Assembly: GCA_040380025.1 (NCBI GenBank)
Contig: JBEIJY010000012.1
Location: 1-60,329, forward strand
Direction of reading: 5' to 3'
Length of the DNA: 60,329 bases
Source: Bdellovibrionales bacterium
GTDB taxonomy: Bacteria > Bdellovibrionota > UBA1018 > CAIMNF01
Shown: positions 1-54,922 of the stretch, in pieces
Layout of the letters: each line of letters begins with the position of its first letter
How positions within the stretch are numbered: the first letter of the stretch is position 1
Position numbers and translations under genes: made by a program
The notes under the pieces: generated by a model
Told to the model about the DNA's origin: nothing
The model's database searches: none
Seen by the model: only the letters and a program-made list of their open reading frames with translations

Positions 1-121
1 AGCCGGGTCCTCCGGCCTCGCTTTCGCCATCCTGGCTCGCGAGAGTCGGCAAAACCTTTTTGTTTCCCAGCCCCTTTCCCAAACCACCGTACTAATCAGG
101 AACACTCAAAGGGGGCAGTTT
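1..121. repeat. Hairpin element copy E1 (left part truncated by window start)
   Basis: Core CCGGCCTCGCTTTCGCCATCCTGGCTCGCGAGAGTCGGCAAAA at ~12-54 and right terminus AACACTCAAAGGGGGCAGTTT ending at 121, both matching the other copies. Confidence 0.85.
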
Positions 122-187
122 GTGCGTGACTCGATCCGTTGCAACTAAATCCTTGCAACTCGAAGCACAGAGGATTATTCACGAATC

Positions 188-1285
188 ATGCCCAAAATCT
201 CGAAGTTTCTGGTCCTTTTCGCGCTGCTTCCCGGTGCGGCCGGAGCAGGCCCCTTCACTCCCGCGGATCTCCCCGATCTCGTCGACCGGGTCGCTCCGTC
301 GACCGTGCACATCTCGACCCGACTCGATCAGCGCCGGCAGTTCCGGATGCAAGGATGGGGCGACTTTTACCAATTCTTCGGCATCCCCGAGGGACAAGAA
401 AACGGCTCTCTCGGCACGGGCTTCATCATCGATCCGACCGGCACGGTGATCACGAATTTTCATGTGGTGGAACAAGCGGCCGAGAACAGTGCCGTCGAGA
501 TCGCCATCACGCTCCGGGACAAACGCCAGTTCGGCGCGCGAATCATCGGCAAAGACCCGAAAACCGACATCGCGCTTCTGCAGATCCAGGACAAGAACGG
601 ACGCCCCCCGGCCATGTTGCTTCCAGCGCGTCTTGGTGACTCCGACAAGGTCCGGATCGGCGAACCCGTCGTTGCGATCGGAAACCCCTTCGGCCTCGAT
701 TACTCGGTTTCGGCCGGAATCATCTCTTCAAAAAACCGGAACATCGGACAAGGCCCCTTTGACAACTACCTGCAGACCGATGCGGCGATCAACCCGGGCA
801 ACAGCGGCGGTCCGCTCTTCAACACCCGGGGCGAGGTCATCGGGATCAACTCGGCGATCTTCAGCCGTTCAGGCCAATTCGGCGGCATCGGCTTTGCGAT
901 CCCGATCAATGACGGAAAAAGCATTCTCGAGACGCTGAAGCGCTTCGGCCGCGTCCCGCGCCCTTGGCTCGGTGTGATCACCCGGCAAGTCACCCCCACC
1001 CTCTCCTTCATGTACCAGTTACCGGTCGATCAGGGACTCCTCATCGTGAACCTCGTGCAATCCGCACCCGCCAACCGGCAGGGTCTCCGCGCCGGCGACA
1101 TCATTGTCGAGCTGAACGACAAATCCGTCCGGGACCAGACCGAAGTCGAGCGCGAGCTTTCCAAGCTGAAGCCCATGGACTCGGCCCGACTCAAAATTCA
1201 AAGAGGGATGCGAAGAATCCCGGTTACAGTGAAGCTCGAGGAATTCCCCCCGGGCCTGAACCGCGTGCGCGAAGGAGTGCTCTGA
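188..1285 (+). CDS. htrA: HtrA/DegP-family serine protease with one PDZ domain and signal peptide
   Basis: Motifs TNFHVV, TDIALL, QTDAAINPGNSGGPL; C-terminal PDZ (WLGV...GLRAGDII). Confidence 0.93.
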   Translation: MPKISKFLVLFALLPGAAGAGPFTPADLPDLVDRVAPSTVHISTRLDQRRQFRMQGWGDFYQFFGIPEGQENGSLGTGFIIDPTGTVITNFHVVEQAAENSAVEIAITLRDKRQFGARIIGKDPKTDIALLQIQDKNGRPPAMLLPARLGDSDKVRIGEPVVAIGNPFGLDYSVSAGIISSKNRNIGQGPFDNYLQTDAAINPGNSGGPLFNTRGEVIGINSAIFSRSGQFGGIGFAIPINDGKSILETLKRFGRVPRPWLGVITRQVTPTLSFMYQLPVDQGLLIVNLVQSAPANRQGLRAGDIIVELNDKSVRDQTEVERELSKLKPMDSARLKIQRGMRRIPVTVKLEEFPPGLNRVREGVL

Positions 1286-1287
1286 CC

Positions 1288-1962
1288 ATGAAACCCGAAA
1301 AACGGATCCGGAATCAAAAAAACACCGCAAAACCGGTTGATTTGCCACTCGATTTCCTGAAGCTCGTCGACGAGACGATCACCCAGGCGCTCGAGCCTGG
1401 ACTCATCGAGCTCCGCAAGATCCATCCCGAATCGGGGTTCCAGTCGAGCGGATCGGTCTTTGGTGATGAGCTTTTGTTGTCGATCTCGCTCACCCACGGC
1501 ACGCAGATCCTTCATGCCACCACGGTGCATGCGAGTGTCGACTACGATCCAAACCGCGAGACTCCGAGCATCAATGATCTTCTTGCGATGTGCGTGGATA
1601 CGGCGGGGATTGTGTTCCAGCATTACCTCGACCCCGGCTTCCCCGAACGAATCGCCCGGATCGCCGAGAGCTCGCTCGGGGCGCTCGAAGAGGCCCCGTT
1701 CGAGTGGAGCGCGATTCCCGCTCCAGAGGCCAAGGGCGTGGTCGTCCATGTGAAGATCGACAAATCAAATCCCGTACTCGATCGTCTCGCCGAGGAATGG
1801 TTGCAGAAGAATGACCCGGCTCGCGCCAAAACAGGCGAAGCCGGAGCCGAGGCCCGGATCGAAGCGGCCGAGGATTTTCTGGAAGAGCGGATTGAAGCGA
1901 TCCGCGCGGCGAAATCCGGTTCCGGCGGAATCCCGGGCGGCAACGGTCCGATCCGGCACTGA
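1288..1962 (+). CDS. Hypothetical protein (probable start ATG 1288, MKPEKRIRN...)
   Basis: 3' part of ORF 964..1962; ATG 2 nt after the htrA stop; normal protein composition. Confidence 0.75.
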   Translation: MKPEKRIRNQKNTAKPVDLPLDFLKLVDETITQALEPGLIELRKIHPESGFQSSGSVFGDELLLSISLTHGTQILHATTVHASVDYDPNRETPSINDLLAMCVDTAGIVFQHYLDPGFPERIARIAESSLGALEEAPFEWSAIPAPEAKGVVVHVKIDKSNPVLDRLAEEWLQKNDPARAKTGEAGAEARIEAAEDFLEERIEAIRAAKSGSGGIPGGNGPIRH

Positions 1963-1967
1963 TCGCA

Positions 1968-2166
1968 CGACGCCCCCGGTTGATTGTGCTTGGTTATGAT
2001 GCGGGATCGGCAGAGGCGGGTGGGTTGATTCGGTTTTTGCCGACTCTCGCGAGCCAGGATGGCGAGAGCGAGGCCGGACGATCCGGCTCGGAGGCATAAA
2101 CGGAATCAATCCACCCGCCTCTGCCGATCCCGCATCATAACCAAGCACAATCAAAGTGTGCCGCAC
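1968..2166. repeat. Hairpin element copy E2 (core in reverse orientation), between convergent genes
   Basis: ~62-bp arms, starting TTGATTGTGC at 1980 and ending GCACAATCAA at 2154, with 3 mismatches; they enclose the conserved core. Confidence 0.95.
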
Positions 2167-2170
2167 GCGA

Positions 2171-2917
2171 TCAGTAATCGGTATCGTCGAAGCCTTCGTC
2201 TTCCTTGCGAATGCTTCCGATCAGGGAATCGATCGAATCGCCGTCGTATTCGAGCTCGTCGATCGATTCGTCGAGTTCGAGATCATGAATCACCTTGGTG
2301 AAGTTCACCTCGGTCGAGAGGTCCTGGCGGATCACCTCGATGTATTTCTCGGGGTACTTGCTGACCAGCTCTTCGATGTACTGGTTCAGCTTTCCTTCCT
2401 TCAGGATCATCTCCTTGCGTTTGATCTTCTTCCAGTTCTTGATGTAATCGAGCCGGCAGTAGCCCTTGGTGGTGGGAGGGTTCTCGCATCCTGCCTCCCG
2501 GCAACCGCGATCGGAGTGCATCGACACGCCCGCAGGAGTCATGGGCGCCGGGCTCTTCCCCTTGGCCTTTCCTTTGGCGGCGGAGGCAACAGCAGGCGAT
2601 GCGGGCATCGGCTTCGGAGCAGGTTTGAGTTCCTTTTGAGGCACCGGCTTCGGCGCCGGTTTAGGAGCGGGCTTATCGGTCTTGGGGTGAGGGATCTTGG
2701 ATGTGGGTTTCAATTGCTTCCCTTGAGTCTTTGCAGAAGGTTTGGTGGCGGCGCCCTGCCCCTTGCCGACGGGAGGCGACTTGGTTTTGGGCTTTTGTTT
2801 GTTGCTTTTCGCCCCCATGGCCTTGACGATCCCCTTGGCAATCCGAGTGACCCGGTTCAGAACGGGGGTCTGCTTCGGGGTGGACTTTTTCTGGATTGGT
2901 TTTGCCTTTTTCGCCAT
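2171..2917 (-). CDS. Hypothetical protein: Lys/Pro/Ala-rich N-terminus, Cys-containing conserved-looking C-terminal domain, acidic tail
   Basis: ORF 2171..2926 with likely ATG at 2917 (MAKKAKP); CREAGC...GYCRLDYIKNWKKIKRKE. Confidence 0.75.
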   Translation of the reverse strand: MAKKAKPIQKKSTPKQTPVLNRVTRIAKGIVKAMGAKSNKQKPKTKSPPVGKGQGAATKPSAKTQGKQLKPTSKIPHPKTDKPAPKPAPKPVPQKELKPAPKPMPASPAVASAAKGKAKGKSPAPMTPAGVSMHSDRGCREAGCENPPTTKGYCRLDYIKNWKKIKRKEMILKEGKLNQYIEELVSKYPEKYIEVIRQDLSTEVNFTKVIHDLELDESIDELEYDGDSIDSLIGSIRKEDEGFDDTDY

Positions 2918-3059
2918 GGTTTTCATTTCCCTTTGATTCCGTCCCCAGTCCTGTTTTCGTGCCTTATTCTACAACTTGCGTCAAGCTTTTTCTTGACAAG
3001 GACAGGGTTTTGATCGAACGTCTATCCTCTAATTTTACACGATGAAAGGGTAAGATCCA

Positions 3060-3272: not shown

Positions 3273-3312
3273 TGCCAGGGCCGCTCTTTCAAAACTGAAT
3301 CAAATCAAATCT

Positions 3313-3351
3313 CCCGGGGGGACCGTATCAGGATCCTCCGGGTTTTTTTTT
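3313..3351 (+). terminator. Probable intrinsic terminator after rpmF
   Basis: CCCGGGGGGACC...GGATCCTCCGGG stem followed by T9. Confidence 0.6.
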
Positions 3352-3362
3352 GGAGACATCGA

Positions 3363-8575: not shown

Positions 8576-8585
8576 AGACGCGCGG

Positions 8586-17684: not shown

Positions 17685-18958
17685 GTCAGAATCCGTTTTT
17701 AAGCTCCCTTGCCTCGGTCGATCCCGAGATCTTTCGCTCCATCGAGGCCGAGAGCGTGCGCGAGGAGGACGGCCTTGAGCTGATCGCCTCTGAGAACTAC
17801 GCATCGAAAGCCGTGATGGAGGCGCAGGGATCGATTCTGACCAATAAATATGCCGAAGGCTACCCCGGCAAGCGCTACTACGGCGGCTGTGTGAACGTCG
17901 ATGCGGCCGAGAGCCTTGCCATTCAGCGCGTCTGCGCGCTGTTCGGAGCCGAAGCGGCGAACGTGCAACCCCATTCGGGATCGAGCGCGAACATGGGCGT
18001 GTATCATGCGATTTTGTCGCCGGGTGACACGATCCTCGGCATGAGCCTCTCGCACGGCGGGCACCTGACCCACGGAAGCCCCGTGAACTTCAGCGGAAAG
18101 CTCTTCCGCGCCCTTCATTACGGTCTCGAGGCCGATACGGACTTGCTCGATTACAATCAGGTGCGCGAAATGGCAAAACGCGAGCGCCCGAAGGTGATCA
18201 TCGCGGGAGCCTCGGCCTACTCGCGGATCATTGATTTTCAGACCTTCGGCGAGATCGCCCGCGAAGTCGACGCCAAGCTCGTGGTCGACATGGCCCACAT
18301 CGCGGGCCTCGTCGCGGCGGGACTCCACCCGAGCCCGATTCCGCACGCCGACTACACCACTTCGACCACGCACAAGACCCTCCGCGGCCCGCGGGGCGGA
18401 ATCATCCTTTCTTCGGCCGCGAACATCAAGGCCGTGAACTCGCTCATCTTCCCCGGAATCCAAGGGGGTCCGCTCATGCACGTGATCGCGGCCAAGGCGG
18501 TCGCATTCGGCGAAGCCTTGAAGCCAAGCTTCAAGACCTACCAGGAACAAGTCATCAAGAATGCGCGGGCCCTGGCCTCGGCGTTGATCGACGGGGGCTT
18601 CAAGCTCATCACGAACGGCACCGACAATCATCTGATGCTGGTCGACCTCTCGCGGAGCCTTGCCGGAGAGGTCTCGGGCAAGGATGCCGAGGCGTGGCTC
18701 GATCTTGCGGGCATCACCGTGAACAAGAACACCGTGCCGAACGAAAAACGCTCGCCCTTTGTGACGAGCGGAATCCGGATCGGGACTCCGGCGATGACCA
18801 CACGGGGCCTGAAAGAATCCGAGATGCGCCTCGTTGCCGGTTGGATCAAACAAGTCATCGACTCCAAAGGAGACGAATCGACCCTGAAGCAGGTGCGCGC
18901 GAAGGTGCTCGAGCTTTGCAAGTCCTTTCCTGTCTACGGAGCCCATCATGCTGTTTGA
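17681..18958 (+). CDS. glyA: Serine hydroxymethyltransferase
   Basis: [34 protein letters not shown] at 17681. Confidence 0.97.
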
Positions 18959-21522: not shown

Positions 21523-23247
21523 ATGAAACTCGGACCTTTGCTTTCTGTTTTTCTCCTTCCCGTTTTCGCCCTCGCACGGCCAATCGCAAATTCGCATCCG
21601 GAATCCCGAAGTCACATCATGGTGCTCTCGGGCGGGGTCTCCTCGTTCCAGAATCACTACAGTCAGTACCTGCAAACCAAGCTCCTGGCCGAGCACATGC
21701 GAAGCCGGCTCACTCCCGAACAGGTCGATTTGTTTTTTGCGGCAGGGAACAACGAAACCACGAAGGAGCTGTTCCCGGACGTGCATCGGTACATCCAAAG
21801 CTCGGGACTCAGCCGGGTGGATCAGCTTCTGCCGGGAATCATTTCAGGAAATCGTCCGGCGACGCCAACGGTCGTGAAGGAGTACTTTGATACAGAACTT
21901 CCCGCCAAGATCGATCCGTCCGGGACGTTGTTTCTGCTGGTCACCGATCATGGCGCCCCGAACCCCCGTCTCATCGATGCTACCGATCCCTATGCGGACA
22001 ACTGCATCGATCTTTGGAGCGGAAAGGCGACGACCAGGGACAACAGCCTTTATGAGGATCTGCGGAATTGCTTTTCGGTGAAAAAGCTTGAGCAGGGCCT
22101 GAAAAAATCAAGCCCCGGACGGACGGTCTTCGCCATGACCCAGTGCCATTCCGGCGGGTTCCACCGTTTGTCGGTCAAGAAAGACGGAAGCTCCCGTTGG
22201 ACCGCGAATCCCGCGATTTGCGGATTCACCGCATCCGACGAGAACACGGTTGCCTCGGGGTGCACCTCGGATGTGAATGACGAAAACTATCGCGGCTATG
22301 AGCGTTTTTTTGCGGAGGCGCTCTCGGGAACGGATGTGATCACCCGAAAGCCCAAAGGCACCCCCGCGAAGAGCCTGCAAGAGGCCCATTATTCTGCCGC
22401 CGAAATCGACACCACCCTCGACATCCCGCTCTCCACGAGCGAGTACTTTCTCAGGAACTGGGCCGAGGACATCGCGAGCTCCGGCTTTGAGCCAAGGACC
22501 CGGGTCTTGAACCGGAGACAGGCGAAGAAGTTGCTGACTCAGGTGATGCGGAACAAAATCCCGCGCGAAGAGATTCTGAGCAAAGCGGGCCCGTTCGAGA
22601 GCTGGTTTGCGGCGCGCTTTGCACATCTGGACCGGATGGGAGAAAACCTCGCCGCGAGTTCCGGAACCGTGGGTTCCTTATGGAACCGTCCGCCCAAGGA
22701 GATCCGCGATGCGTTCAAAGGATTCCGGAAATCCAGCCTCGAGTTGGAAACGAAAAAAAACGAGATCGAAGAACAGTATGCGGCGCTGATCGACGAGGCC
22801 ATGAAACCGGATTACCTCAATTCCTTGATCCTCAAGGAAAAAGACCCTGAGTATCTGAAAGATCTCGAGAACCGCTACCATTCCTTCCTCGTGAAAGATC
22901 CGGACCTGTATCAAACCAGACTCTTCAGTCTGACCCGTGCGGGCAATCCGGATGCGGTGGTGCTTGCGGAACAAGAACAGAAATTTTTAGAGATCTTCGC
23001 TGCAAACGCGGCCCGTCTGCCCGGTGGAAAGTATGAAAATTTGCCGGAACAGCTGGATTTTTTGAAAGAAACCCATGATGCGCTCGAAGACCGGTACTCC
23101 GAACTCTCCCGCGTGCAACACATCCTGACCCGGATCATGATCCAACGCGGAGTCATCGCCGCGGCCCATGTGCTGATCCAAATGAAGGACGAGCAGGCGC
23201 TTGCGGATTTGCAGGGCTTGCTCGAGTGCGAGGCGACTCCGTTTTAG
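21523..23247 (+). CDS. Secreted clan CD (caspase/C13-like) peptidase with C-terminal coiled coil, paralogue A
   Basis: Signal peptide; LLVTDHG (His) and MTQCHSGGF (Cys) dyad motifs. Confidence 0.72.
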   Translation: MKLGPLLSVFLLPVFALARPIANSHPESRSHIMVLSGGVSSFQNHYSQYLQTKLLAEHMRSRLTPEQVDLFFAAGNNETTKELFPDVHRYIQSSGLSRVDQLLPGIISGNRPATPTVVKEYFDTELPAKIDPSGTLFLLVTDHGAPNPRLIDATDPYADNCIDLWSGKATTRDNSLYEDLRNCFSVKKLEQGLKKSSPGRTVFAMTQCHSGGFHRLSVKKDGSSRWTANPAICGFTASDENTVASGCTSDVNDENYRGYERFFAEALSGTDVITRKPKGTPAKSLQEAHYSAAEIDTTLDIPLSTSEYFLRNWAEDIASSGFEPRTRVLNRRQAKKLLTQVMRNKIPREEILSKAGPFESWFAARFAHLDRMGENLAASSGTVGSLWNRPPKEIRDAFKGFRKSSLELETKKNEIEEQYAALIDEAMKPDYLNSLILKEKDPEYLKDLENRYHSFLVKDPDLYQTRLFSLTRAGNPDAVVLAEQEQKFLEIFAANAARLPGGKYENLPEQLDFLKETHDALEDRYSELSRVQHILTRIMIQRGVIAAAHVLIQMKDEQALADLQGLLECEATPF

Positions 23248-23250
23248 TGC

Positions 23251-23451
23251 GAACTGTGCCCTTTGAGTGTGCTCCGTTTCAGTCCAGGATGGACAGTGGG
23301 GGTTGGAATCGCTCGATTTTTACCTCCATGCCGCATCCTGCGGCCTCGCTTTCGCGCATCACGCGCTCGCGAGAGTCGGCAAAAACCGAACGATTCCAAC
23401 CCCCTCTGTCCATCCTGCTCCTTCATTGAGTACAACCAAAGGGAGCAGTTG
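23251..23451. repeat. Hairpin element copy E3 (201 bp)
   Basis: GAACTGTGCCCTTTGAGTGTGC ... TACAACCAAAGGGAGCAGTTG termini; ~40-bp paired arms; conserved core. Confidence 0.92.
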
Positions 23452-23532
23452 ACATTAAACACAGCGGAAGGGGCGGTTCGCGGGTCGGCCAGTGAATTGT
23501 GTTTCGCCTGAGCTCGTGTTACGCTACGCGTT

Positions 23533-31828: not shown

Positions 31829-32029
31829 GAACGGATCCCTTTGATTGTTTTTTTTAAGGCGAGGAATGGGGAGAGGGTTCGGGAATGATTCGATTTTTGC
31901 CTCCGAGCCGCGTCCTGCGGCCTCGCTTTCGCGCATCACGCGCTCGCGAGAGTCGGCAAAAATCGAATCATTCCCGAACCCTCTCCCCATTCCTAGCCTT
32001 GCATCAAGCTCATTCAAAGAGTGTAGCCG
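31829..32029. repeat. Hairpin element copy E4 (~201 bp), between divergent genes
   Basis: 44-bp arms with 1 mismatch around the conserved core; CTTTGATTG ... CATTCAAAG termini. Confidence 0.92.
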
Positions 32030-34606: not shown

Positions 34607-35224
34607 TCACTTTCCTGTCGCGCCCCACTTCACTCGGGCGAGAGCGTCAAAAAAGAACGGATCAATCGGGGCGATCGCACCGCGGAAGTACCGGAGGGCA
34701 AGGCGGGAGATCCCCATCTCGGAACGCAGGCAGGCATCTTCGACGCGACCCATGCGCGCCAGAATCCGGCGATGGGCGGGCGTACCCTCAGCCGCCTCCT
34801 TCAGCTGATCCTCCAGTCGATGGAGCTCATGGACCCGCAGGGCGAGCTTCGGCTCCATGGCTTCAATGCGGCCCGATACCGCAGCAAGGGATTTCTCGGG
34901 AAGGGCTCGCGCAGCCAGCTCTTTCGCGGCCGTTTTCATCATTTCCAGAATCAGCCCCGGAAGCACCTCCGTGCCGACCTCGACATCGACCCACTTCTCG
35001 GTGGTCGAAAGGTTCGAGACGAAAATCTCGATGACCACGAATCCGGGCCGGTCCTCGGTGAGATTCAGGACTTGCAGGAATTTTCCGGCGAGTTTGCGGG
35101 AATGGGCGACGATCGACACCGAATCAGCAGAGGATTCCAGCACCGAGGCCTCGAAACCCGCACGGACGATGTTTTTTTTGACGGAGGAAAGGACGGAAGA
35201 AAAAGTGGAACTGCTTCGTTTCAT
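34607..35224 (-). CDS. Hypothetical protein
   Basis: ORF 34607..35290, likely start MKRSSS at 35224. Confidence 0.55.
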   Translation of the reverse strand: MKRSSSTFSSVLSSVKKNIVRAGFEASVLESSADSVSIVAHSRKLAGKFLQVLNLTEDRPGFVVIEIFVSNLSTTEKWVDVEVGTEVLPGLILEMMKTAAKELAARALPEKSLAAVSGRIEAMEPKLALRVHELHRLEDQLKEAAEGTPAHRRILARMGRVEDACLRSEMGISRLALRYFRGAIAPIDPFFFDALARVKWGATGK

Positions 35225-35322
35225 GGTCGAGACCATATCCGGTTTCGGTTGCGGAGTCAGGAGAAATCCCATGCTTCGCCCTCTTTCCAATCGTTCCCGT
35301 ATCGCGGTACAATCAAAACAAC

Positions 35323-39969: not shown

Positions 39970-40664
39970 ACCCACCCTATCGGATCTTGTTCGAGGATCA
40001 GCATCTTGCGGTCCTCTCGAAAGACCCGGGGCTTCTCTCGCAAGGAGATGCCTCCGGTGATCCCTCACTGGTCGATCTTTTGCGGACCCGCTTCGGGCGA
40101 CAATATGTCGGGCTCGTGCATCGTCTTGATCGCAACACGAGCGGCCTCATGGTCGTCGCGAAACGCTCGAAAAGCGCGGAGCGACTCACGAACCAACTGC
40201 AATCGGGCGAGCTCGAACGTCGCTACCATGCGATTCTTTTCGGCTCATTTGAATCGAATGAGCCCCGACGCTGGGAACACCTGATGCTGAAGAACCTGAA
40301 CACGAATGAGGTCCGGATCGTGACCCGTCCGGTCCCGGGCGCGAAGATCGCAATTCTCGAGATGACTCCGGTTCTCGGGTTCCCGCATCCTTCGACGGGG
40401 GATCTCCTGACTCTTGCCCGATTCACGCTCGAGACCGGGCGATCCCATCAGATCCGCGCCCAGGCGCTGGCGATGAATCATCCCCTGATCGGCGATCAAA
40501 AGTACGGCACGCCGAAAAGCGCGGGCCTCTTCCACCGTCCCGCCCTGCATTCGTGTTTTCTTTCGTTCTCGCATCCGATGTCGAAGGAACGACTCGAGTT
40601 CTCGGAGAATCTCGCCCCCGACATGGAAGAGCTTCTGCCCGCATCCCGAAGGAGCCTTGATTGA
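39948..40664 (+). CDS. RluA-family pseudouridine synthase
   Basis: HRLDRNTSG, TGRSHQIR, GDQKYG. Confidence 0.92.
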   Translation: MAHSDPLNPPYRILFEDQHLAVLSKDPGLLSQGDASGDPSLVDLLRTRFGRQYVGLVHRLDRNTSGLMVVAKRSKSAERLTNQLQSGELERRYHAILFGSFESNEPRRWEHLMLKNLNTNEVRIVTRPVPGAKIAILEMTPVLGFPHPSTGDLLTLARFTLETGRSHQIRAQALAMNHPLIGDQKYGTPKSAGLFHRPALHSCFLSFSHPMSKERLEFSENLAPDMEELLPASRRSLD

Positions 40665-42994
40665 AAGTCGTCCGCCTTGAATTTCGCGACGAGCGCACCC
40701 CGTATTCGCCGCTCTTCGAAGATGTGTATTTTTCGCCCGTCTCGGGGATCGAAGAATCGAATGAAGTTTACATCGAAGGAAGCGGCTTCGCCGAGTCGCT
40801 CGCCTCGGGGAAACCCCGCATCACGGTTGCGGAGATCGGGTTCGGTGTCGGGCTCAATTTTGTTCTGACCGTGCGCCACTTCCAAACTGCCCTCTTTGAT
40901 TGTGCAGGGTTAGGGAGTGCGACCGGCAGAAGGGATTGGAAGGATTCGGCTTTTGCCTCCGAGCCGGATCGTCCGGCCTCGCTCTCGCCGTCCTGGCTCG
41001 CGAGAGTCGGCAAAAACCGAATCCTTCCAATCCCTTCTGCCGGTCCCGTGCCATTACCCTGCACAATCAAAGAGGGCAGTTTGGGAGCCTCCACGAACAG
41101 TCCGGTTCTTGAGTATATCTCGTTCGAAAAGCATCCGGTCCATCGGGACGATCTCGTGCGCCTCTATTCGGCCTACCCGGAACTCGCGCGTTCATCGAGC
41201 GCGCTCTTGCAAGCCTATCCTTTGCTGGTTCCCGGGGTGCATTCCATCCGGCTCTTTGACGGCCGGGTGCGTCTCACGCTTGTCTTGGGTGATGCGGCTG
41301 CGATGCTCGGAAAAATGCAATTCCAGGCTGATCACTGGTACTGGGACGGATTCGCCCCGAGCCGGAATCCGGACGCGTTCTCGGACGAGATCTTCACCGA
41401 GGTTGCGCGCCATTCCAAAAAGGAGGCGCGGGGATCGAGCTTCACTTCTGCGGGCTGGGTCCGGCGGGCGCTCGAGTCGGCCGGATTCCAGGTCACCAAG
41501 GTTCCAGGCTACGGAAGAAAACGCGAGCGCCTGACGGGGGTTTTCGCGGCCGCCCCACGAACCTCCCCCAAACTGCCCCATTTGATTGTGCAGGGTAATG
41601 AAACGGGATCGGCCGAGAGCGGCGAAATGATTCCGCTTTTACCCTCGGGTCGGGGCTCTAGGACTCGCGCTCACCAATCGGGGTCGCGAGAATCCGAAAA
41701 ATCCGAATCCCTCCCATCCCTTCTGCCGATCGCGCCCCCTAACTCTGCACAATCAAATGGGGCAGTTTGGAGTTTGCAGGGACTGAGCCCTCCCCCGTGG
41801 TTCTCGCAAAAAAATCATTCGCGCCTGTCGCCCGACCGGAACCGTGTCGCCATCATCGGCGCGGGCCTCGCCGGCTCCGCGGTCGCACGATCCCTTGCCG
41901 GACGGGGTGCGGTGGTGCGCGTGTTCGATGCACATGGAATCGCCACCCGTGCTTCGGGAAATCCCGCAGGGCTGTTCAACACGCAAATCTCAAAACTTCC
42001 GAATCCGATCAGCCGGTTCGCACAGGCGTCGCTTGCGCATTTCTTGCGCGAGCTGGACTCGCTTCGCGTTCCGGCACGGCGCGGAATCCTGAGAAAGGAC
42101 TTCTCCGACCCGGCGCCCCTGATTGCTTCGGAGTATCCGGAGGATTTCTACGAGCTCCGCGAAAATGGCACGTTTTTCGGACTCGCGGGAATGCTGAATC
42201 CGGCAGAACTATGCCGCGCGCGGCTTGATCACCCGGGAATCTCCCTGCAAGCCGATGCGGTGATCCGGGTCGAACGAGAAGGCGAAGAATTCTCGCTCCA
42301 TCATCCGTCGGGAGCAGTTTCTCGCGGGTTCCATCACGTCGTGTACACCATGGGCGCGGATCCGCGCCTTCCGGGAAGCGCCCCTCTTCTGCATCCCCTT
42401 CTGGACGCCCTTCCAACGCGTCCGATTCGCGGACAGATCTTGCTATTGCGGCCCACGCCCGAATCAGCGCGCCTCCCGCATTGCCTGGTCGAAGAGGGGT
42501 ATCTGACGCCGCTCGCACCGGAAATCACGAAGAATGAGTTTCACCTTTTGGGCGCAACCTATCAGGCAAAGACGATTCTTCCGGATCAGGAAGAGATCGA
42601 CACGGCCCGACTGCTCGAAGACGCCGGGAAGTGGCCTGAGATCGGGAAGTTCACGCGCGATCATGTGGTCTCGACGCGGACAGGCTACCGGATGTCGACC
42701 CCCGACAAGCTCCCTTTGATCGGCCCCGTGGTGGATCCGGCATGGCTCAGGGACGCGTACCAGAGGACTCTGCGGGGCGCTCGGCAGATCGCGGGTCCCG
42801 ATCTGGAGCCCGAGCCGGGCGAGTGGATGCTCACGGGTCTTGGATCGCGGGGAATCACCTACTCGTCGTACGGCGCGGAGATTCTGGCCTCGATGATGAC
42901 AGGAGAGATGCCGCCGATCGAGCTGGATCTCCTTGAGCATGTTCATTCGGCGCGGTTTTTCGTGCGAAAACTTCGCGATGTTACGATAAAGTGA
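40661..42994 (+). CDS. mnmC: Bifunctional tRNA mnm5s2U biosynthesis protein MnmC, carrying two in-frame hairpin-element insertions
   Basis: FEDVYFS, EIGFGVGLNF, SFEKHP, DGFAPSRNP, IIGAGLAG, ASGNPAG, GLGSRG. Confidence 0.9.
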   Translation: MKVVRLEFRDERTPYSPLFEDVYFSPVSGIEESNEVYIEGSGFAESLASGKPRITVAEIGFGVGLNFVLTVRHFQTALFDCAGLGSATGRRDWKDSAFASEPDRPASLSPSWLARVGKNRILPIPSAGPVPLPCTIKEGSLGASTNSPVLEYISFEKHPVHRDDLVRLYSAYPELARSSSALLQAYPLLVPGVHSIRLFDGRVRLTLVLGDAAAMLGKMQFQADHWYWDGFAPSRNPDAFSDEIFTEVARHSKKEARGSSFTSAGWVRRALESAGFQVTKVPGYGRKRERLTGVFAAAPRTSPKLPHLIVQGNETGSAESGEMIPLLPSGRGSRTRAHQSGSRESEKSESLPSLLPIAPPNSAQSNGAVWSLQGLSPPPWFSQKNHSRLSPDRNRVAIIGAGLAGSAVARSLAGRGAVVRVFDAHGIATRASGNPAGLFNTQISKLPNPISRFAQASLAHFLRELDSLRVPARRGILRKDFSDPAPLIASEYPEDFYELRENGTFFGLAGMLNPAELCRARLDHPGISLQADAVIRVEREGEEFSLHHPSGAVSRGFHHVVYTMGADPRLPGSAPLLHPLLDALPTRPIRGQILLLRPTPESARLPHCLVEEGYLTPLAPEITKNEFHLLGATYQAKTILPDQEEIDTARLLEDAGKWPEIGKFTRDHVVSTRTGYRMSTPDKLPLIGPVVDPAWLRDAYQRTLRGARQIAGPDLEPEPGEWMLTGLGSRGITYSSYGAEILASMMTGEMPPIELDLLEHVHSARFFVRKLRDVTIK
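40884..41082. repeat. Hairpin element copy E5 (199 bp), in frame in mnmC
   Basis: Perfect TIR AAACTGCCCTCTTTGATTGTGCAGGGT / ACCCTGCACAATCAAAGAGGGCAGTTT; 37-bp inner arms; intact core. Confidence 0.97.
41570..41768. repeat. Hairpin element copy E6 (199 bp), in frame in the mnmC interdomain linker
   Basis: Perfect TIR AAACTGCCCCATTTGATTGTGCAG / CTGCACAATCAAATGGGGCAGTTT; degenerate arms and core. Confidence 0.93.
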
Positions 42995-43812
42995 CACCCA
43001 TGCGATCGATCAGCGCCCTCCTCATCGTGAAAAATGAAGCCTGCTATATCGAGCGCGCTCTTTTGTCGCTCCTTTGGTGCGATGAGATCGTGGTGGTCGA
43101 TGCGTTCAGCACGGATGAAACGCCGGCCATTTGTGGCGACCCCGCGAAACCCTGGGCGAAGAAAATCCGATTCCTACAAAAAGAGTGGATGGGATTCTCG
43201 GCCCAGCGGAATTTCGCGATCAGCCAGGCACGAAGCCCATGGGTTTTCTTTCTGGACGGAGATGAGGCCTGCTCGCCGGAGCTCGCAGAGCGCATCCAGT
43301 CGCTCTTGAAGAGTCCCGATCTGACTCCCGGACAGTACAAAGTCCGGCGGCAGGAGTTTTTTCTGAAGAAACCGATTCATCATGGAATCTGGAATCCGTC
43401 CTATCATGTGCGTTTGTTTTATCGGGATCATCTGCGCTTCACCGGCGAAGTCCACGAGGGGGTCGAGTGCGCGGACGAAGTGAGAAGGATCGACGAGCCG
43501 ATCATTCATGTGGAGGATCTGAGAATTGAGCGGATCCTGAACAAGATGAACCACTATACGACGATCCAGGCGGAAGCGGATTACAAAAGCGGCCTCAGGA
43601 CGAATCTGCTCCGGATCCTGCTCTCATTCCCGGCAATGTTTTATAAGAACTATGTGTATTACGGGGCCTGGAGGGACGGGACCGAGGGAGTGATGATCTC
43701 GGTGTTGGAGGGGGTCTCGAGAACCGTGCGCCATCTCAAGATCTGGCAACTCTCCCAAACTGCCCGCTTTGATTGTGCAAAATTAGACTCCAGTAAAAAA
43801 AATTCTCTCTAA
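42991..43812 (+). CDS. Glycosyltransferase family 2; last ~18 codons come from element E7
   Basis: LIVKNE, VVVDAFSTDET, FLDGDE, GEVHE. Confidence 0.9.
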   Translation: MTPMRSISALLIVKNEACYIERALLSLLWCDEIVVVDAFSTDETPAICGDPAKPWAKKIRFLQKEWMGFSAQRNFAISQARSPWVFFLDGDEACSPELAERIQSLLKSPDLTPGQYKVRRQEFFLKKPIHHGIWNPSYHVRLFYRDHLRFTGEVHEGVECADEVRRIDEPIIHVEDLRIERILNKMNHYTTIQAEADYKSGLRTNLLRILLSFPAMFYKNYVYYGAWRDGTEGVMISVLEGVSRTVRHLKIWQLSQTARFDCAKLDSSKKNSL

Positions 43813-43944
43813 ATTGCAAAAGCTTGCATCAAGACATTCTTAGGCCCTGGGCACGGCGATTTTCATCTGTCACTCGGTTACAGCGAATCCTCCGGCATAT
43901 GAATCCTGTTTTCGAAAACCATGCACAACCAAACAGGGCAGTTT
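43757..43944. repeat. TIR-bounded element E7 (188 bp, no core), upstream of the transposase
   Basis: CTCCCAAACTGCCCGCTTTGATTGTGCA ... TGCACAACCAAACAGGGCAGTTTG. Confidence 0.88.
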
Positions 43945-43977
43945 GCAGTTGGCACAGTCTCTGCCTTCTCCCCCCGC

Positions 43978-44901
43978 ATGCGAATCCAGTGTCCGAATCC
44001 ATTGTGCCCTAAAATCCATCCCTGTGCCCATATCCCCCGTCGCCGTGGTCCGAAACCCAGACCGATCGTCCGAAAAGGAAGCTACTACCGTTTCTCGGAC
44101 CGCAGGTTCATCGATCGCTATCAATGCCGATGTTGCGGAAAGAATTTTTCGAGCGCCACCCGATCTCCCGATTACCGAAAAAAGAAGCGGCACCTGAATT
44201 CCGAGATCTTCAATCTCTATTGCTCGGGAGTGAGCCAAAGAAGGATGGCGCATTTGCTCGAAACCACCGAAAGGACCATCGTCGACAAGTTCCGTCTGCT
44301 CGCGAAGAGAGCCAGGCAAGAACACGAGGAATGGCTCAAGGGCATCGAGCCGAATTCCATCAGGAGTGTCCAATTCGATGACCTCGAAACCTTCGAACAC
44401 ACGAAGTGCAAACCCCTGAGCGTGACCCTCATGGTGAAGAGCCAAACCCGTGAGATTCTCGGATTCCAAGTTTCGCAAATGCCGGCAAAGGGACCACTCT
44501 CGAAGATTTCTCTTCGAAAATACGGTCCGAGAAAAGACAAGCGGCATGAGGGATGGAACCGATTCTTCAAAAATCTCGAGCGGATTCTTCACCCCGAGGT
44601 CCTGATTGAATCAGACGAGAATCCCCATTACCCAAAGCATGTGAAACGGTATCTGCCCGAAGCCAGGCATACGCGGTATCAGGGAGCACGGGGAGCGATC
44701 ACGGGTCAGGGAGAGCTGAAGAAGATCGGCTTTGATCCGCTGTTCGCCCTGAATCACACCTGTGCGATGTTGCGGGCAAACATGAACCGCCTTTTTCGCA
44801 GGACGTGGTGCACGACGAAGACAGTCGAAGGGCTTGTGGATCATCTCTCGCTCTATGTGCGGTACCACAACACGCTAATCCTCCCAAACTGCCCGTCTTG
44901 A
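43978..44901 (+). mobile_element. IS1-family-like transposase (Zn ribbon, HTH, RNase H-like DD[E->N] domain)
   Basis: CPNPLC...RYQCRCCGKNF; GVSQRRMAHLLETTERTI helix-turn-helix; QFDDLE, ESDENPHY, LNHTCAMLRANMNRLFRRTWCTTK (compare IS1 InsB [24 protein letters not shown]). Confidence 0.75.
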
Positions 44902-45071
44902 TTGTGCATGAATAGAGACTTCCCATTTTTTTTCGCATGAAATTCCCAACAATTAACCCATTTTTCTGATTCGCCCGGATCGGCTCTGGAATCGCTCCCT
45001 GATTTCGGGCCAAATCAACGGGCGAAACGCCAATTCCGCCTAAAACCATGCACAATCAAAACGGGCAGTTT
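44886..45071. repeat. TIR-bounded element E8 (186 bp, no core), downstream of the transposase and supplying its stop codon
   Basis: CTCCCAAACTGCCCGTCTTGATTGTGCATG ... CATGCACAATCAAAACGGGCAGTTT. Confidence 0.9.
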
Positions 45072-45180: not shown

Positions 45181-46179
45181 ATGAGAACCATTTTCATCGT
45201 CCTGGTGGTTCTGATTTTGATCGGGGGGGGAGTCTGGTTGCTTAGGCCCGCGCAGATGGGGCCGGGAGTGCAGGTTCCCGCAGCAAAAACAACGGCGGTG
45301 GAAGACTCCACAATCGTAGATGCTTCGCAGCCAAACCCGGGTGATGACAATCCCGTACAAAATCCGAACCTCCCTACTCCCACCGCCGAGAGCCAAGCAT
45401 CGAAGCCCCGCGTCGGCGTCTGCCACCCGCAAACTGCCTCAGATGATTGTGCACCATTAACGACCGGAATGACGCCAACACCTCGGAATCATTCTATTTC
45501 TAATGCAAAGCCCGGACGTTCGGAATTAGCCTCCCCATCCGGGCTCGCAAACGAGGACAAAACCCGAATCATTCCGGCTCTGTCTGTTCATGGTCTTCCT
45601 AAACCAGGAACAATCAAAGAAGGCAGTTTGTGCTGGGTACGCGAGTACCGCCACAAGGCAAACTCCCGCGCCCTTCCCATCGACGAGTTCCTCGAGCACC
45701 TGAACGCCTTCCCTCTCGAGCGCCCCGACATCCAGCCAAAGAGCATTTGTGTGAAGGTGGACGGCACTCCCGTCGACTTTGTGGTTTCGAGCCGGGGGCA
45801 AAAAAAAGAGATCGTCATCGGACCCGTGGTGGGACCAGAGAGCATCATCCGCGTCTCGTACTGCACCGGAAGCGCGCGGTGCGGAGAAGCCTGCGCGAAA
45901 CCCGCACGACGGTTCATGGATGAGCTGACCGGCGATGTTCTCACACCACCACACGGCCCGACAGGCCGTGCAGACTCACCTGCCCCGACAGGCCGTGCGG
46001 CCGCAAACAGCCCCAGAACCCCGGCTCTCTCCCACCACGAAGCCGACACGGCCGAGCTCCGCGCGGGCCTGAACGAGCTGAAGGCCCTCGCCCGAACCAA
46101 TGATTCCCTCACCGATCACGCAATTCTGCGGGATTGGAACACCCTCGTCGCGCGCGAGCGCACCTGCAAGGAGAACTGA
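45181..46179 (+). CDS. Membrane-anchored hypothetical protein at the head of the gliding-type operon, with in-frame element E9
   Basis: ATG at 45181 (MRTIFIVLVVLILIGGG TM anchor); Cys-containing C-terminal domain. Confidence 0.75.
   Translation: MRTIFIVLVVLILIGGGVWLLRPAQMGPGVQVPAAKTTAVEDSTIVDASQPNPGDDNPVQNPNLPTPTAESQASKPRVGVCHPQTASDDCAPLTTGMTPTPRNHSISNAKPGRSELASPSGLANEDKTRIIPALSVHGLPKPGTIKEGSLCWVREYRHKANSRALPIDEFLEHLNAFPLERPDIQPKSICVKVDGTPVDFVVSSRGQKKEIVIGPVVGPESIIRVSYCTGSARCGEACAKPARRFMDELTGDVLTPPHGPTGRADSPAPTGRAAANSPRTPALSHHEADTAELRAGLNELKALARTNDSLTDHAILRDWNTLVARERTCKEN
45431..45629. repeat. Hairpin element copy E9 (199 bp, degenerate), in frame
   Basis: AAACTGCCTCAGATGATTGTGC ... AACAATCAAAGAAGGCAGTTTG; translates QTA...TIKEGSL, like E5. 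Confidence 0.85.
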
Positions 46180-51130: not shown

Positions 51131-52248
51131 AGACGACAAACCGTGGTACTGCACGTGCTCCGCACCGCTACCTGATTCGTCTGAAGGGACGGCTCCCTGT
51201 GCGCTGGGATGGACTCGCCCCCCTGCCCTTGAATCGCTCCGGATCACTCGTTCTCGAAAAAAACGAGGGAACCTTGCGCCTTCGTGACCGCTGGACGGGG
51301 ATTCTTCCGATGGGCGAGATCCTCTCGGTCACGGATCTCTCTGCGGTTCCGGCCGTGAACTGGACCGAATCCCGCCGCGCGCTCCCGTTTCGCCTGCTCT
51401 CGCGGGGCGAGACCGCCCCCGAGGACCGGGTGTTTCAGCGCGATCTGAAGCGCGGCTTCGCCGCATTTGCGCTTCTGCTCCTTGCGGTGTTCGCCGTGCG
51501 GTCCTTCGAACCCGATGGGAAGGAGGAGCCGAAACTGATCCCCGCTCCCTATGCGAAACTCATTCTGACCCGTCCGAAGTATTTAAAACCCAAAGCAACG
51601 GGAGGAGCCTCCGCAGCGCGCGCCGAGGCCCGAGCGGTGGCGCGGGCGTTTCAGAGCAAAAAAGTGCAAACCGATATGCGTTCGGTCTTAAAGACCGGTC
51701 TTTCGCGCTACTCGCTCATGAACTCCGGAAAAGCCGTGAGTGACCTCTCGCGCGCGATGTCGGCCGAAGGATCGCTTGCCGGAAGCGGCACCCGAAAAAC
51801 CGCCGAAGGCCTCCTTGGCGCGGCCCTGCAAGGCTCCCCCAGGCTTGGGGCCGAGACCGGATACGGATCCGGCCGCGGAATCCGCGTGAAGGGCCAGGGC
51901 TCAGGCCAACTCGAGGTCGGACTCGACACCTCCGAGGCATCGGTCGACGAGGGGCTGACGCGCGAGGAAGTCGCACGGATCATCCACAAGCACATGAACG
52001 AGATTCGCTACTGTTACGAGAACGGAATTCTTCGTGATCCCACCCTCGCGGGGCGGCTCTTGGTGGATTTCAGGATCAATGCCAGCGGACAGGTCCCGCA
52101 GGCCGGCGTGAGCGAAACGGGCCTGAGAAGCGCCGAGGTGGCCGAGTGCCTGCTCCGGAAGCTCCGAAGCTGGAAGTTCCCCGAGCCCCGTGGCGGCGTC
52201 GTGGTCGCCGTAACGTATCCGTTCATTTTTAAGAGTCTTTCGAGGTGA
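51127..52248 (+). CDS. AgmX/PglI-type TonB-C domain protein (GltG-like)
   Basis: Single TM, Gly-rich linker, IRYCYE...L.G.L.V.F.I...CL...W.FP.P.GG.V.V.YPF. Confidence 0.8.
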   Translation: MKTTNRGTARAPHRYLIRLKGRLPVRWDGLAPLPLNRSGSLVLEKNEGTLRLRDRWTGILPMGEILSVTDLSAVPAVNWTESRRALPFRLLSRGETAPEDRVFQRDLKRGFAAFALLLLAVFAVRSFEPDGKEEPKLIPAPYAKLILTRPKYLKPKATGGASAARAEARAVARAFQSKKVQTDMRSVLKTGLSRYSLMNSGKAVSDLSRAMSAEGSLAGSGTRKTAEGLLGAALQGSPRLGAETGYGSGRGIRVKGQGSGQLEVGLDTSEASVDEGLTREEVARIIHKHMNEIRYCYENGILRDPTLAGRLLVDFRINASGQVPQAGVSETGLRSAEVAECLLRKLRSWKFPEPRGGVVVAVTYPFIFKSLSR

Positions 52249-54047
52249 AACCCATGATCCATCTTGCTCTTTTGTTCACTCTTAGCGGTCCTCCCCTTTC
52301 GGCATTGGCGCAAAGCACGGGTCCCGCCTCGGTTCGGGACCCTTGTACGACCTCCGAGCGCTGGATGTTTTCGGATTCCCAAAAAAAATCCCAATGGACT
52401 GCCGATTTTGAACGTTCGATTGCGGCCGATGCCCCGTTTCTTTCGGGATTGGCCGGATCGATCCGGCTCTCGCGGATTTCGGCGCTCCTGAAGAACTCTG
52501 GTTTTGAGCGGGATTTTGCCGAATACTGGGCCGGAAGATCGCTCTTTCGGATGGGGTTATTGCCGGTCGCCCGAAGCGCATTTCTCTCGCTCCTCGAGCA
52601 CACCCGCGACCGCACCTTGCGGCGTGCCTCGCAGGTGTGCCTTGCGCGGATCGAATCCGAATTCCCCGATCTTAAAAATCCCGACCTGAAAGCGCCGGAA
52701 CCGGCCCCGCGCGAGATCCTCGCTTGGAGCCCGGACGAGCTTGCGACCCTGATTCCGTTCCTGATGCAAAGCGAATCCCCGCTTTCCTCGGTGCTCCCCG
52801 AACCGCATCGCTCGCTCGTTTCGGGGTTCAAAGAACTGAAGAACCGCCGCTATTCTGGCGCGATTCCGCTTCTTTCGTCCGTGCTCCGCTCGATCGAACT
52901 CCATCCGGGAAGTCCGCTTGCGCGCTATCGCGACGAGCTTCATCTTGCCCTTGGTCGCGCGCTGTATTCGGTCGCGCGATTCCGCGAATCGGCGGCAGAA
53001 TTCCAAAAAGTGAGCAAAACCTCGAACCGCGCCATCGAGGCCCTGAGCAATCTTTCGTGGGCGTATCTGCTCGATCGCAGGCCCGACGATGCCTTGGGGG
53101 TCGGGATTCAAATCCGCTCGGGTGCCCTGCGAAGCGCCTTCGCGCCCGAGCCCCTCATGGTCTCGGCCATGGCCCTGAACGAGCTTTGCATGTTTCCCGA
53201 ATCGATCCGCATGATCCGCGCCTTCGTGCAAGGGTATCAGGACTCGTATGATTGGCTAAAAAAGAACCCGCACCCGGCCGATGGCTATGCACTCACGCTC
53301 GCGGCATTGAAGCGCCCCGAGGACTTTCCACGAAGGCTCGCAAGCGAGTGGATTCGCAGGCCGGGCTTTCTTTCGCGGCAAATCGCCTTGAATGCGCTCT
53401 TCTCGCATCCGGGCAGAATCAGCGCGATCCGAAAAGAGTCCGAGCAGGAGCTCGCACGGATGAGCTCCGACGCCAAAAAAGAAATGAAGTCTCTGATCGC
53501 AGAAGCAAAGCGCGCGATCGCGAGCCGTCGCAACTCGGACCCCCTCCCCGAGAAGCTCTCGCTCCGGTATCAGGATCTCAGAAAAGGCCTTGCTCGAATG
53601 GGAAGATTTCAGGAGGCCCTGCGCGCATGGTCTTCGCTCGCCGATCGATACGAGAGCGGGCTTCCGGCGCTTCGAAAAGATCTCGTGGCCCTAGTGAACC
53701 GCGACTTCACCCTGCAAAACCGGAGGCTCCTGAGCTCGCTTGAGGCCGTGCGCGCGAATGTCGACCTGATCGAGGTCGAGATTTACCGCGGGGCAAGCCG
53801 GGATTTGGTGTGGAAGAGCGTCCACCCGGAATTCGAAGGAGTCAAAGACCGCCTTGCCGATCAGAAGCCGGGCCCAAGCCACCGCGACACCTGGAGCTGG
53901 GGACGGATCGCCCCGGGCGAGATCGAGTCGACAGAAGTCTGGGAGGATGAGCTCGGAGCGATCAAGGCCGATGTTCACAGCCTTTGTGATGCGAAAGAAA
54001 AATACATCAAACTGGGATCGGACCAATCCCAAGGAGGAAATCGATGA
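52245..54047 (+). CDS. TPR protein (GltC-like)
   Basis: TPR helices, PEPLMVSAMALNELC, C-terminal EVWEDELG...C. Confidence 0.65.
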   Translation: MKPMIHLALLFTLSGPPLSALAQSTGPASVRDPCTTSERWMFSDSQKKSQWTADFERSIAADAPFLSGLAGSIRLSRISALLKNSGFERDFAEYWAGRSLFRMGLLPVARSAFLSLLEHTRDRTLRRASQVCLARIESEFPDLKNPDLKAPEPAPREILAWSPDELATLIPFLMQSESPLSSVLPEPHRSLVSGFKELKNRRYSGAIPLLSSVLRSIELHPGSPLARYRDELHLALGRALYSVARFRESAAEFQKVSKTSNRAIEALSNLSWAYLLDRRPDDALGVGIQIRSGALRSAFAPEPLMVSAMALNELCMFPESIRMIRAFVQGYQDSYDWLKKNPHPADGYALTLAALKRPEDFPRRLASEWIRRPGFLSRQIALNALFSHPGRISAIRKESEQELARMSSDAKKEMKSLIAEAKRAIASRRNSDPLPEKLSLRYQDLRKGLARMGRFQEALRAWSSLADRYESGLPALRKDLVALVNRDFTLQNRRLLSSLEAVRANVDLIEVEIYRGASRDLVWKSVHPEFEGVKDRLADQKPGPSHRDTWSWGRIAPGEIESTEVWEDELGAIKADVHSLCDAKEKYIKLGSDQSQGGNR

Positions 54048-54724
54048 AAAACCCAATGCTTCTGCTCATTCTGTTGGCGCTCGGAAGCCCGCTGCACGCA
54101 TTTGCCCAAGGGGAGGCCGTGGATGTCTCGAAAATCACCGAAAAATACTGGGCGGGCGGAAAGGAATCCGAGCTCGGGGTGGTCCAGAACCGGCAGTACT
54201 CGAACGAGGGCCATGTCGAAGTCGATTTGCTGGGCGGAAGCGTCTCGAGCGATCCGTTTTTTTCGACCACGAGCTACGGGGGCTCGATCGGCTATCACTT
54301 CAGCAACGATCTGAGCCTTCATGCGATTGCGTGGAAGGCGAGCACCCGCGATTCGGACGCCTACGAAAAACTTCGAAGCGAGGCCCCCGCGGCCGATCTG
54401 TACCGGAATGCGCCGAAGGCCTTTTATGGATTGCAGGCAAATGCGAATCTTCTGTACGGAAAAGCCTCTCTCTTCGGGAAGCTCATCATTTACCTCGATT
54501 TGTTCTTACTGGGCGGCGCCGGCGTGACCGATACCGAGACCGGAAAAAACCTCACGCCGTTCCTCGGGATCGGGCAAAAGATCCGGCTGAACCGGTTCGC
54601 ACTTTTGCACCTTGATTACCGGATCATGCGATATTCCGAGACGGTCGGGAACTCGATCGGGGATCTTCGGGAGCGGACGAACACGAGCGATGCGGTCACA
54701 CTGGGGCTTGGGTTCCAGTTTTGA
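54044..54724 (+). CDS. Outer membrane beta-barrel protein (GltA/B/H-like)
   Basis: VVQNRQY, DPFF, LLYGKASL, terminal Phe. Confidence 0.8.
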   Translation: MKNPMLLLILLALGSPLHAFAQGEAVDVSKITEKYWAGGKESELGVVQNRQYSNEGHVEVDLLGGSVSSDPFFSTTSYGGSIGYHFSNDLSLHAIAWKASTRDSDAYEKLRSEAPAADLYRNAPKAFYGLQANANLLYGKASLFGKLIIYLDLFLLGGAGVTDTETGKNLTPFLGIGQKIRLNRFALLHLDYRIMRYSETVGNSIGDLRERTNTSDAVTLGLGFQF

Positions 54725-54922
54725 GCGGTACCCCTTCAGTTTGCCTGAGTTGACCTTCCGTCCGGAAAAGAGGTGGGAATAAAAAAGGGTTTCGCCTCCG
54801 AGCCGCGTCGTGCGGCCTCGCTTTCGCGCGTCACGCGCTCGCGAGAGTCGGCAAACCCTTTTTTATTCCCGCCTCTTTTCCGGCCGGTGTTTCAGTTCAG
54901 GCACACTCAAGGGGGACAGATC
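54723..54922. repeat. Hairpin element copy E10 (~200 bp), filling the gap between convergent genes
   Basis: Arms CCGGAAAAGAGGTGGGAATAAAAAAGGGTTT / AAACCCTTTTTTATTCCCGCCTCTTTTCCGG; core present; GCACACTCAAGGGGG terminus. Confidence 0.92.

Follow-up and report, generated by a model that had tools for sequence, protein, structure and literature searches.

Hairpin MITEs of a Bdellovibrionales genome with an IS1-like partner and arms probably kept complementary by exchange in place

Hairpin-forming MITEs (miniature inverted-repeat transposable elements), such as Correia/NEMIS of Neisseria, ERIC and bcr1 of Bacillus, are small, non-coding and multi-copy, carry terminal inverted repeats (TIRs) and target duplications, and lie in intergenic regions at gene ends. 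For bcr1, the literature describes base-pair compensatory changes that preserve a cruciform-like fold (PMC3184786). The REPINs, associated with RAYT transposases, are shorter hairpins of ~70-100 bp. A different line of work, on template-switch mutagenesis and palindrome gene conversion, describes how a single event can copy one arm onto the other, fix a stem and invert its spacer; it deals with RNA genes and laboratory reporters (PMC8794818). Here we analyse a family of ~200-bp hairpin elements in a 60,329-bp stretch of DNA, the whole of contig JBEIJY010000012.1 (C12 in our numbering, hereafter the window) of the Bdellovibrionales draft genome GCA_040380025.1 (G000; 2.35 Mb, 53 contigs, 58% G+C). 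Our analysis points to a MITE family with an IS1-like insertion sequence (IS) as partner, in which the arms are probably kept complementary by in-place arm-to-arm exchange.

In size, copy number, termini, target duplications and genomic position the family resembles the hairpin MITEs. It differs from them in that only the TIRs are common with the partner IS, in that its centre is a conserved asymmetric three-way junction, and in that most copies have unique arms. From the REPINs it is set apart by its length of ~200 bp, its target duplications, its DDE-type IS TIRs and the lack of co-variation with a Y1-like gene. The partner IS recalls the IS1 family in its length of ~1 kb, its ~22-nt TIRs, direct repeats of ~9-11 bp and perhaps also a Cys-rich N-terminus and invariant acidic residues of the transposase; unlike IS1, it scores 42 bits where the profile asks for 100, gives no Pfam IS1 domain match and lacks the frameshifted InsA/InsB arrangement. 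A subgroup of IS1 with a single open reading frame (ORF) exists, and the TIR sequence found here is unlike that of IS1. Compared with the template-switch work, the present material consists of ~100 dispersed transposon copies together with orthologous comparisons. Our literature search (MITE, IS1-family hairpin, Bdellovibrionota repeats), with ISfinder outside it, turned up neither the family nor its transposase. Compensatory changes are already on record for hairpin MITEs and for REPINs (PMC3184786, PMC3116915). The family is thus undescribed, its kind known; what is added here are the IS partner, the duplicated targets and empty sites, the cores inverted in place and an orthologue test of arm co-evolution.

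Each element is bounded by a 22-nt TIR, AAACTGCCCCCTTTGATTGTGC, as its outermost part. Inward of it follow a poorly paired stretch (arm positions ~25-33) and a variable but paired stem (~34-74) ending in TTTTTGCC/GGCAAAAA, and the centre is formed by an asymmetric core of 51-53 nt between 74-nt arms. The commonest layouts are 74+51+74 nt (8 copies), 74+53+74 (4) and 76+51+74 (4). RNAalifold, applied to 42 copies from three species, folds the core into a three-way junction of the long stem, a hairpin of 5-6 bp (GCCGN/NCGGC) and a CTCGC/GCGAG helix that bears a small variable hairpin. Folded as single-stranded DNA, the copy at 40884-41082 reaches -93.6 kcal/mol, compared with -31.2 +/- 3.5 for its shuffles (z = -17.6; 0/200 as good).

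The eight window copies listed in an earlier, sequence-only reading are real, as an nhmmer profile trained on seven of them and run on all contigs of G000 recovers exactly those eight window loci. The first, at 1-121 (+), is a partial copy that the contig start has truncated, leaving its right arm and a portion of the core (1-120 align to model positions 79-198; TIR at 100-121). Full copies follow at 1968-2166 (-; E2, 199 bp, flanked by two convergent stop codons, its termini decayed and its inner stem almost perfectly paired), 23251-23451 (+; 201 bp, with the 53-nt core variant), 31829-32029 (+; E4, 201 bp, termini ~32% off the TIR consensus, one inner mismatch in 41), 40884-41082 (+; E5, 199 bp, the top match to the family profile, with a perfect GTGCA-type TIR pair) and 54723-54922 (+; E8, 200 bp, between convergent genes). 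The remaining two are 199-bp copies on the plus strand: E6 at 41570-41768 has perfect TIRs (0/24), a diverged core and largely unpaired inner arms (16/41), and E7 at 45431-45629 (nhmmer 45432-45628) has recognisable TIRs, a degenerate core and 20 of 41 inner arm positions mismatched. The claim that each arm pairs almost perfectly with its partner fails for the inner arms of these two. An inverted-repeat scan of the window found hairpins at 1980-2154, 23243-23459, 31856-32000, 40879-41087, 41568-41770 and 54722-54923; it bore out the pairing figures given for E2 (62-nt arms, 95% complementary, 3 mismatches) and E4 (46-nt arms, 98% complementary, 1 mismatch), and the arm strings cited for E2, E4 and E10 are present in the window sequence. 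The flanks of E2, CTGATCGC and GCGATCAG (window 1955-2180), mirror each other as an 8-bp inverted repeat in which both convergent genes have their stop codons; the palindrome therefore reaches past the decayed TIRs. A 777-codon ORF (window 40661-42994) runs through E5 and E6; as the elements carry open frames and its protein-family match (FAD-dependent oxidoreductase) lies only downstream of 41768, the long frame is an artefact.

Across G000 the profile finds 105 family loci, 37 of full length, 35 at contig ends and 34 internal partial ones that are shorter than full length (one locus is counted both as contig-end and as full length). The full copies measure 177 (1), 196 (1), 197 (3), 198 (2), 199 (10), 200 (4), 201 (12), 202 (2), 204 (1) and 223 bp (1), so that 35 of the 37 fall within 196-204 bp, with modes at 199 and 201. 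The longest and the shortest of them lie 6 bp apart at C6 23795-24200; a terminal stretch is duplicated in the former (223 bp), and the latter (177 bp) has lost ~25 nt of the core. Since the assembly breaks at family copies (35 of its 106 contig ends fall within one), the window begins inside an element. The family is a main cause of assembly breaks in G000, and its true copy number is therefore uncertain.

The elements are MITEs, non-autonomous derivatives of a DDE transposon. The sequence-only reading had doubted that simple MITE copying could give such dissimilar arms, a doubt not borne out in view of the 22-nt TIRs, the duplications of ~9-11 bp, the empty sites in relatives and the matching autonomous IS; ordinary subfamilies with alike arms also exist in the family. 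Among the 128 TIR matches in G000 at <=5 mismatches, 104 lie inside family loci, and between copies (35 compared) the TIRs have a mean pairwise identity of 0.76 and the core one of 0.81. Direct repeats of ~9-11 bp (<=1 mismatch) flank 7 of the 37 full copies, against 0.24 expected with permuted flanks (200 permutations, maximum 2 copies). The E2 site is empty in four of the five relatives searched (G001, G007, G011 and G016), where the intergenic region is ~190-200 bp shorter and the convergent genes are separated by 13-30 nt; G002 has an empty E8 site, its orthologous intergenic region being ~210 bp shorter. In four DNA runs the contigs end where they reach the multi-copy core, so that neither an empty site nor a flip joint was readable in them. 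No RNA data set appeared among the public runs listed. In the 40-nt flanks no target-site motif was convincingly enriched; ATTGCAA, apparent by eye as a target motif, was not upheld there.

The MITEs are most likely moved by a ~1.03-kb IS encoding a single-ORF, distantly IS1-like, putative DDE transposase. This partner is assigned because of TIR identity and co-occurrence; its enzyme would be the mobiliser. In G002, G010, G013 and G016 the same TIRs enclose the transposase gene in canonical inward orientation (4 loci, IS of 1028-1036 bp), and the TIR variant shifts by species, alike in IS and MITE. In the genus, 8 of 10 genomes positive for a covariance model of the core carry the transposase, versus 2 of 7 negative ones; for a second family of the order the corresponding numbers are 4 of 4 versus 0 of 5, all of these being raw counts over related, non-independent genomes. 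G000 holds copies at window 43978-44901 and on C5, C38 and C46. The window gene (+) is intact, with 307 codons, encodes the candidate mobiliser, a distant IS1-family-like transposase, and has its stop codon within the next TIR. It matches the NCBIfam profile NF033558 (IS1) at E = 1.4e-10 and ~41-42 bits, below the curated cut-off of 100 bits; in Pfam it has no IS1 domain match, a sub-threshold Mutator match being the sole result. Twenty aligned transposases share invariant cysteines in a Cys-rich N-terminus (C5, C50, C53) and invariant acidic positions (D134/D135, D213, E246). Homologues number 3881 proteins at E <= 1e-5, most of them without a name, one being labelled Bdellovibrionales in its source record. 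A tblastn search of plasmids gave no match, and a profile search of solved structures returned nothing meaningful. When the interiors of MITE and IS were compared, nothing beyond chance 9-10-mers was found. The MITE interior is therefore no deletion product of the IS.

On its 5' side the window transposase gene is adjoined by a 188-bp element at 43757-43944 with the same TIRs (43757-43778, +; 43923-43944, -), without core or palindromic arms, and on its 3' side by a 186-bp element at 44886-45071, recognised by inverted repeat I7 and TIR matches, with the same TIRs and an unrelated interior. Other short TIR pairs, of 55-95 bp, occur elsewhere in G000. The transposase gene finishes within the TIR of the 3' module, which contains its last codons (LPNCPS) and the stop; PNCPL or PACPL forms the C-terminus of several distant homologues. 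The stretch 43757-45071 may be a 1315-bp composite IS. The same layout of a gene between modules is seen at C5 100094-101002, there between two core-bearing copies. A glycosyltransferase-family-2 gene (window 42991-43812) ends in the 188-bp module, its last ~18 codons and stop coming from the element.

That arms vary between copies and yet pair within each copy, the central observation of the sequence-only reading, stood up to measurement: over the 44-nt variable segment, identity is 0.80 within copies and 0.55 between them (35 copies, two aberrant C6 copies dropped). The copy's own partner arm is the best match in the genome in 19 of the 35, and at 80% arm identity 22 are singletons, the remainder falling into subfamilies of 5, 4, 2 and 2. 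The 42-sequence alignment omits one identical row and four degenerate copies. Paired cells make up 92.8% of it, compared with 75.1% after column shuffling and 32-47% when partners are slid, and 243 cells are changed on both sides versus 72 in shuffles, the observed number being reached by 0/500 of them. Cells of the long stem comprise 18 one-sided (wobble-type), 216 two-sided and 86 unpaired ones. The mismatched arm positions of the 37 full copies consist of 80 G:T, 117 A:C and 256 others, plus 91 gaps; as G:T does not exceed A:C, wobble pairs are not favoured. Many stem swaps exchange G:C for C:G, for which no wobble intermediate is possible.

Pairing of the inner stem is also uncoupled from the state of the ends. 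Across copies, the mismatch rate at the outer 24 stem positions shows no correlation with that at the inner 41 (r = -0.10). In E4, 14 of the 44 TIR positions are off consensus and 12 of 24 outer pairs are broken, against 1 of 41 inner pairs (Fisher p = 7e-6), where uniform decay predicts ~22 broken inner pairs (binomial P = 1e-12). E2, with 8/24 outer and 3/41 inner mismatches, is alike.

Copies at orthologous sites were compared as ten pairs sharing unique flanks among G002, G010 and G013. In three of the ten, with core orientation held fixed, the asymmetric outer arms change sides together with the unique flanks, which means that the core has been inverted in place, with breakpoints within the inner stem. 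A paralogous flip is seen in G000, where C42_4408 differs in this way from three copies of its own subfamily. The well-paired inner stems of the ten pairs offer 175 base pairs, of which 147 are unchanged, 16 changed on one side, 9 are compensated doubles and 3 other doubles; under independence, 0.76 compensated doubles are expected (P = 1e-7). In L087/L055 the same 2-nt indel stands symmetrically in both arms. In L062/L078 a cluster of three changes within one TIR gives one species a perfect palindrome. Among the closer G010-G013 pairs, 10 one-sided changes stand against 1 compensated double, an excess that is the outcome expected of a process resolving single changes over time.

How, then, would the arms stay matched? 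After insertion, the two arms of a copy would act as closely spaced inverted repeats that exchange sequence, through template switching during replication (quasipalindrome correction), through gene conversion in the course of intramolecular recombination, or by both routes. Any change arising in one arm would be erased or copied onto the other, and the same exchange would flip the core; a copy could drift from its relatives and stay self-complementary, because changes in its arms are erased or copied across. Recombination between closely spaced inverted repeats would have the same outcome and would invert the spacer in addition, and short repeats can manage it without RecA. Template switching is described as creating perfect stems, fixing pairing and making multi-base compensatory changes in one event (PMC8794818). 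The enzymology of the exchange is inferred, with template switching and recombination both as candidates. Arm-to-arm templated copying at the DNA level, one of the options raised by the sequence-only reading, best explains the core inversions, the compensated doubles in orthologues and the old copies with perfect inner stems. All in all, a MITE family with an IS1-like partner, its arms kept complementary by exchange in place, is in our view the probable account.

Could the pairing instead be enforced solely when elements move? If the hairpin were needed for mobilisation, only compensated master lineages would leave descendants, without any correction in place, and the copies would differ because they stem from many such lineages of old date. 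The subfamilies with alike arms fit such a scheme, as does the higher conservation between copies of TIRs (0.76) and core (0.81) than of arms (0.55), and the REPIN literature interprets compensatory changes in this way (PMC3116915). However, copies with perfect TIRs and unpaired interiors exist (0/24 vs 16/41; 2/24 vs 17/41), copies that look immobile, with decayed TIRs, retain near-perfect inner stems, and orthologues, which have not transposed, show compensated doubles, a symmetric indel and core flips, so that we regard selection at transposition alone as improbable. A role of the pairing in a transcript, the element being a structured RNA or acting in cis at the RNA level (for instance as a bidirectional terminator or to stabilise 3' ends), would account for copies just behind stop codons and for an excess of convergent contexts: 14 of 24 scorable elements sit between convergent genes, compared with 17% of all gene junctions, counts that are indicative only, as they cover 24 of the 105 loci and come from a crude home-made gene caller that misses a 1148-codon ORF and reads one ORF across two elements. 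It would also account for structure-preserving core changes between families (P2 GCCGC/GCGGC vs AAACA/TGTTT, P3 CTCGC/GCGAG vs CTTGC/GCAAG) and for a P2 closing position with 23 G-U and 15 A-U pairs on one strand. Against it, Rfam 15 yields no window match at the gathering score, so that no described RNA family is matched there, and at E <= 1 gives only generic miRNA-precursor models far below that score, on both strands; wobble pairs are not enriched in the long stem, tandem gene contexts are divided between 4 co-directional and 5 opposite, and the core flips relative to neighbouring genes at orthologous loci. Moreover, a stem of 40-70 bp gives selection too little hold on any single pair for 40 of 41 to be preserved where the ends have decayed by ~30%. 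Lack of a wobble excess, copies with decayed ends, compensated doubles and core flips favour exchange between DNA arms over selection on RNA, which we consider quite improbable.

A REPIN-like mode of movement, by a Y1 (HUH) transposase of RAYT type rather than by the IS1-like enzyme, has a concrete point in its favour, namely two Y1_Tnp-like genes in G000 (PF01797, 27.5 bits, above the cut-off) that each have an element immediately 3': behind C13 34583-35182 lies a copy reduced to 82 bp by internal deletion (35203-35284), and C25 18392-18895 adjoins a full copy at 18121-18319. A Y1-like gene is present in all five element-rich genomes and in 27 of 41 relatives. However, it does not track the element, since 6 of the 7 congeners that lack a core match carry it, as do 7 of the 10 that have one, and it is flanked by the element on one side only (3', 2 of 2 genes). 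HUH Y1 transposition is not known to make target duplications; here duplications are present (7/37 copies), and the TIRs are those of a DDE-type IS. We hold this origin of mobility to be very improbable.

Several observations weigh against the exchange of arms in place and the partnership with the IS. The compensated doubles are concentrated in two deep G010-G002 pairs, six in L087/L055 and two in L083/L056; orthology of L087/L055 is based on a 76% BLAST alignment over 373 nt and on flank scores with the sides swapped, and arm conversion from a paralogous copy would look identical to a compensated double. The short orthologous element L059/L081/L051 shows one-sided changes only (5/19 pairs), and the orthologue L102 has simply lost its pairing. 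E6, E7 and two C20 copies combine good TIRs with unpaired interiors (0/24 vs 16/41; 2/24 vs 17/41), from which it follows that inner pairing is not required for good ends and that correction does not always operate. Full copies without a clear target duplication number 30 of 37. All 20 aligned transposase homologues match NF033558 below its cut-off (best E = 1.5e-14), the core-positive genomes G003 and G004 gave no transposase match, and palindromes in G054, of another family, carry the core without this TIR (AAACTG). Finally, transposition and arm correction are both inferred from sequence.

What BLAST retrieves in other species is the core only. Of the order's 116 genomes, 14 have a match to a covariance model of core and inner stem (R1); 10 of these are among the 17 genomes of the genus and 4 among the 75 of another family. 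The arms there are ~30 to ~140 nt long and differ from copy to copy. In G054 the fold of the core is kept with exchanged helices, AAACA/TGTTT for GCCGC/GCGGC and CTTGC/GCAAG for CTCGC/GCGAG. The G054 palindromes (L067-L072) are ~330 bp long, with outer ends that vary by copy; the IS of G054 does have the TIR. The core may thus travel with different termini. These findings bear on the constant length of ~200 bp in G000, for which the sequence-only reading had raised a selected, fixed spacing between termini as one option. Such selection finds no support: the modes at 199 and 201 bp correspond to layouts of 74+51+74 and of 74+53+74 or 76+51+74, the same core bears far shorter and longer arms in other species, and the 34 internal partial loci are shorter. 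Constant length in G000 reflects descent from one ancestor with 74-nt arms, with no sign of a ruler, and symmetric handling of indels may contribute to it.

In the ten orthologous pairs the core has changed at 17 of 522 positions (3.3%), compared with 176 of 1413 (12.5%) in flanks >100 nt from the element and partly coding (Fisher p = 7e-11). The core, conserved across two families of the order, is under purifying constraint. One reading would take it as the functional module itself, which, as folded single-stranded DNA or a cruciform tip, would seed hairpin extrusion and so drive flips and arm renewal; we regard this as speculative and on balance unlikely. If true, the element would be a vertically persistent, self-repairing palindromic replicator able to ride different termini (here in the genus the IS1-like TIRs, in G054 ends of another kind), and no passive deletion derivative of an IS.

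Compensatory change in a stem is usually read as selection on RNA structure. In this family, stems would stay paired through copying between arms at the DNA level, with flips of the loop as a by-product, which makes the family a warning for RNA discovery based on covariation. With ~100 replicates in one genome and orthologues in sister species, it offers a natural system in which rates of template switching and palindrome conversion could be measured in bacteria. It also brings to notice a large unannotated family of IS1-like transposases, with its 3881 homologues, and in its conserved core it poses a defined, testable question.

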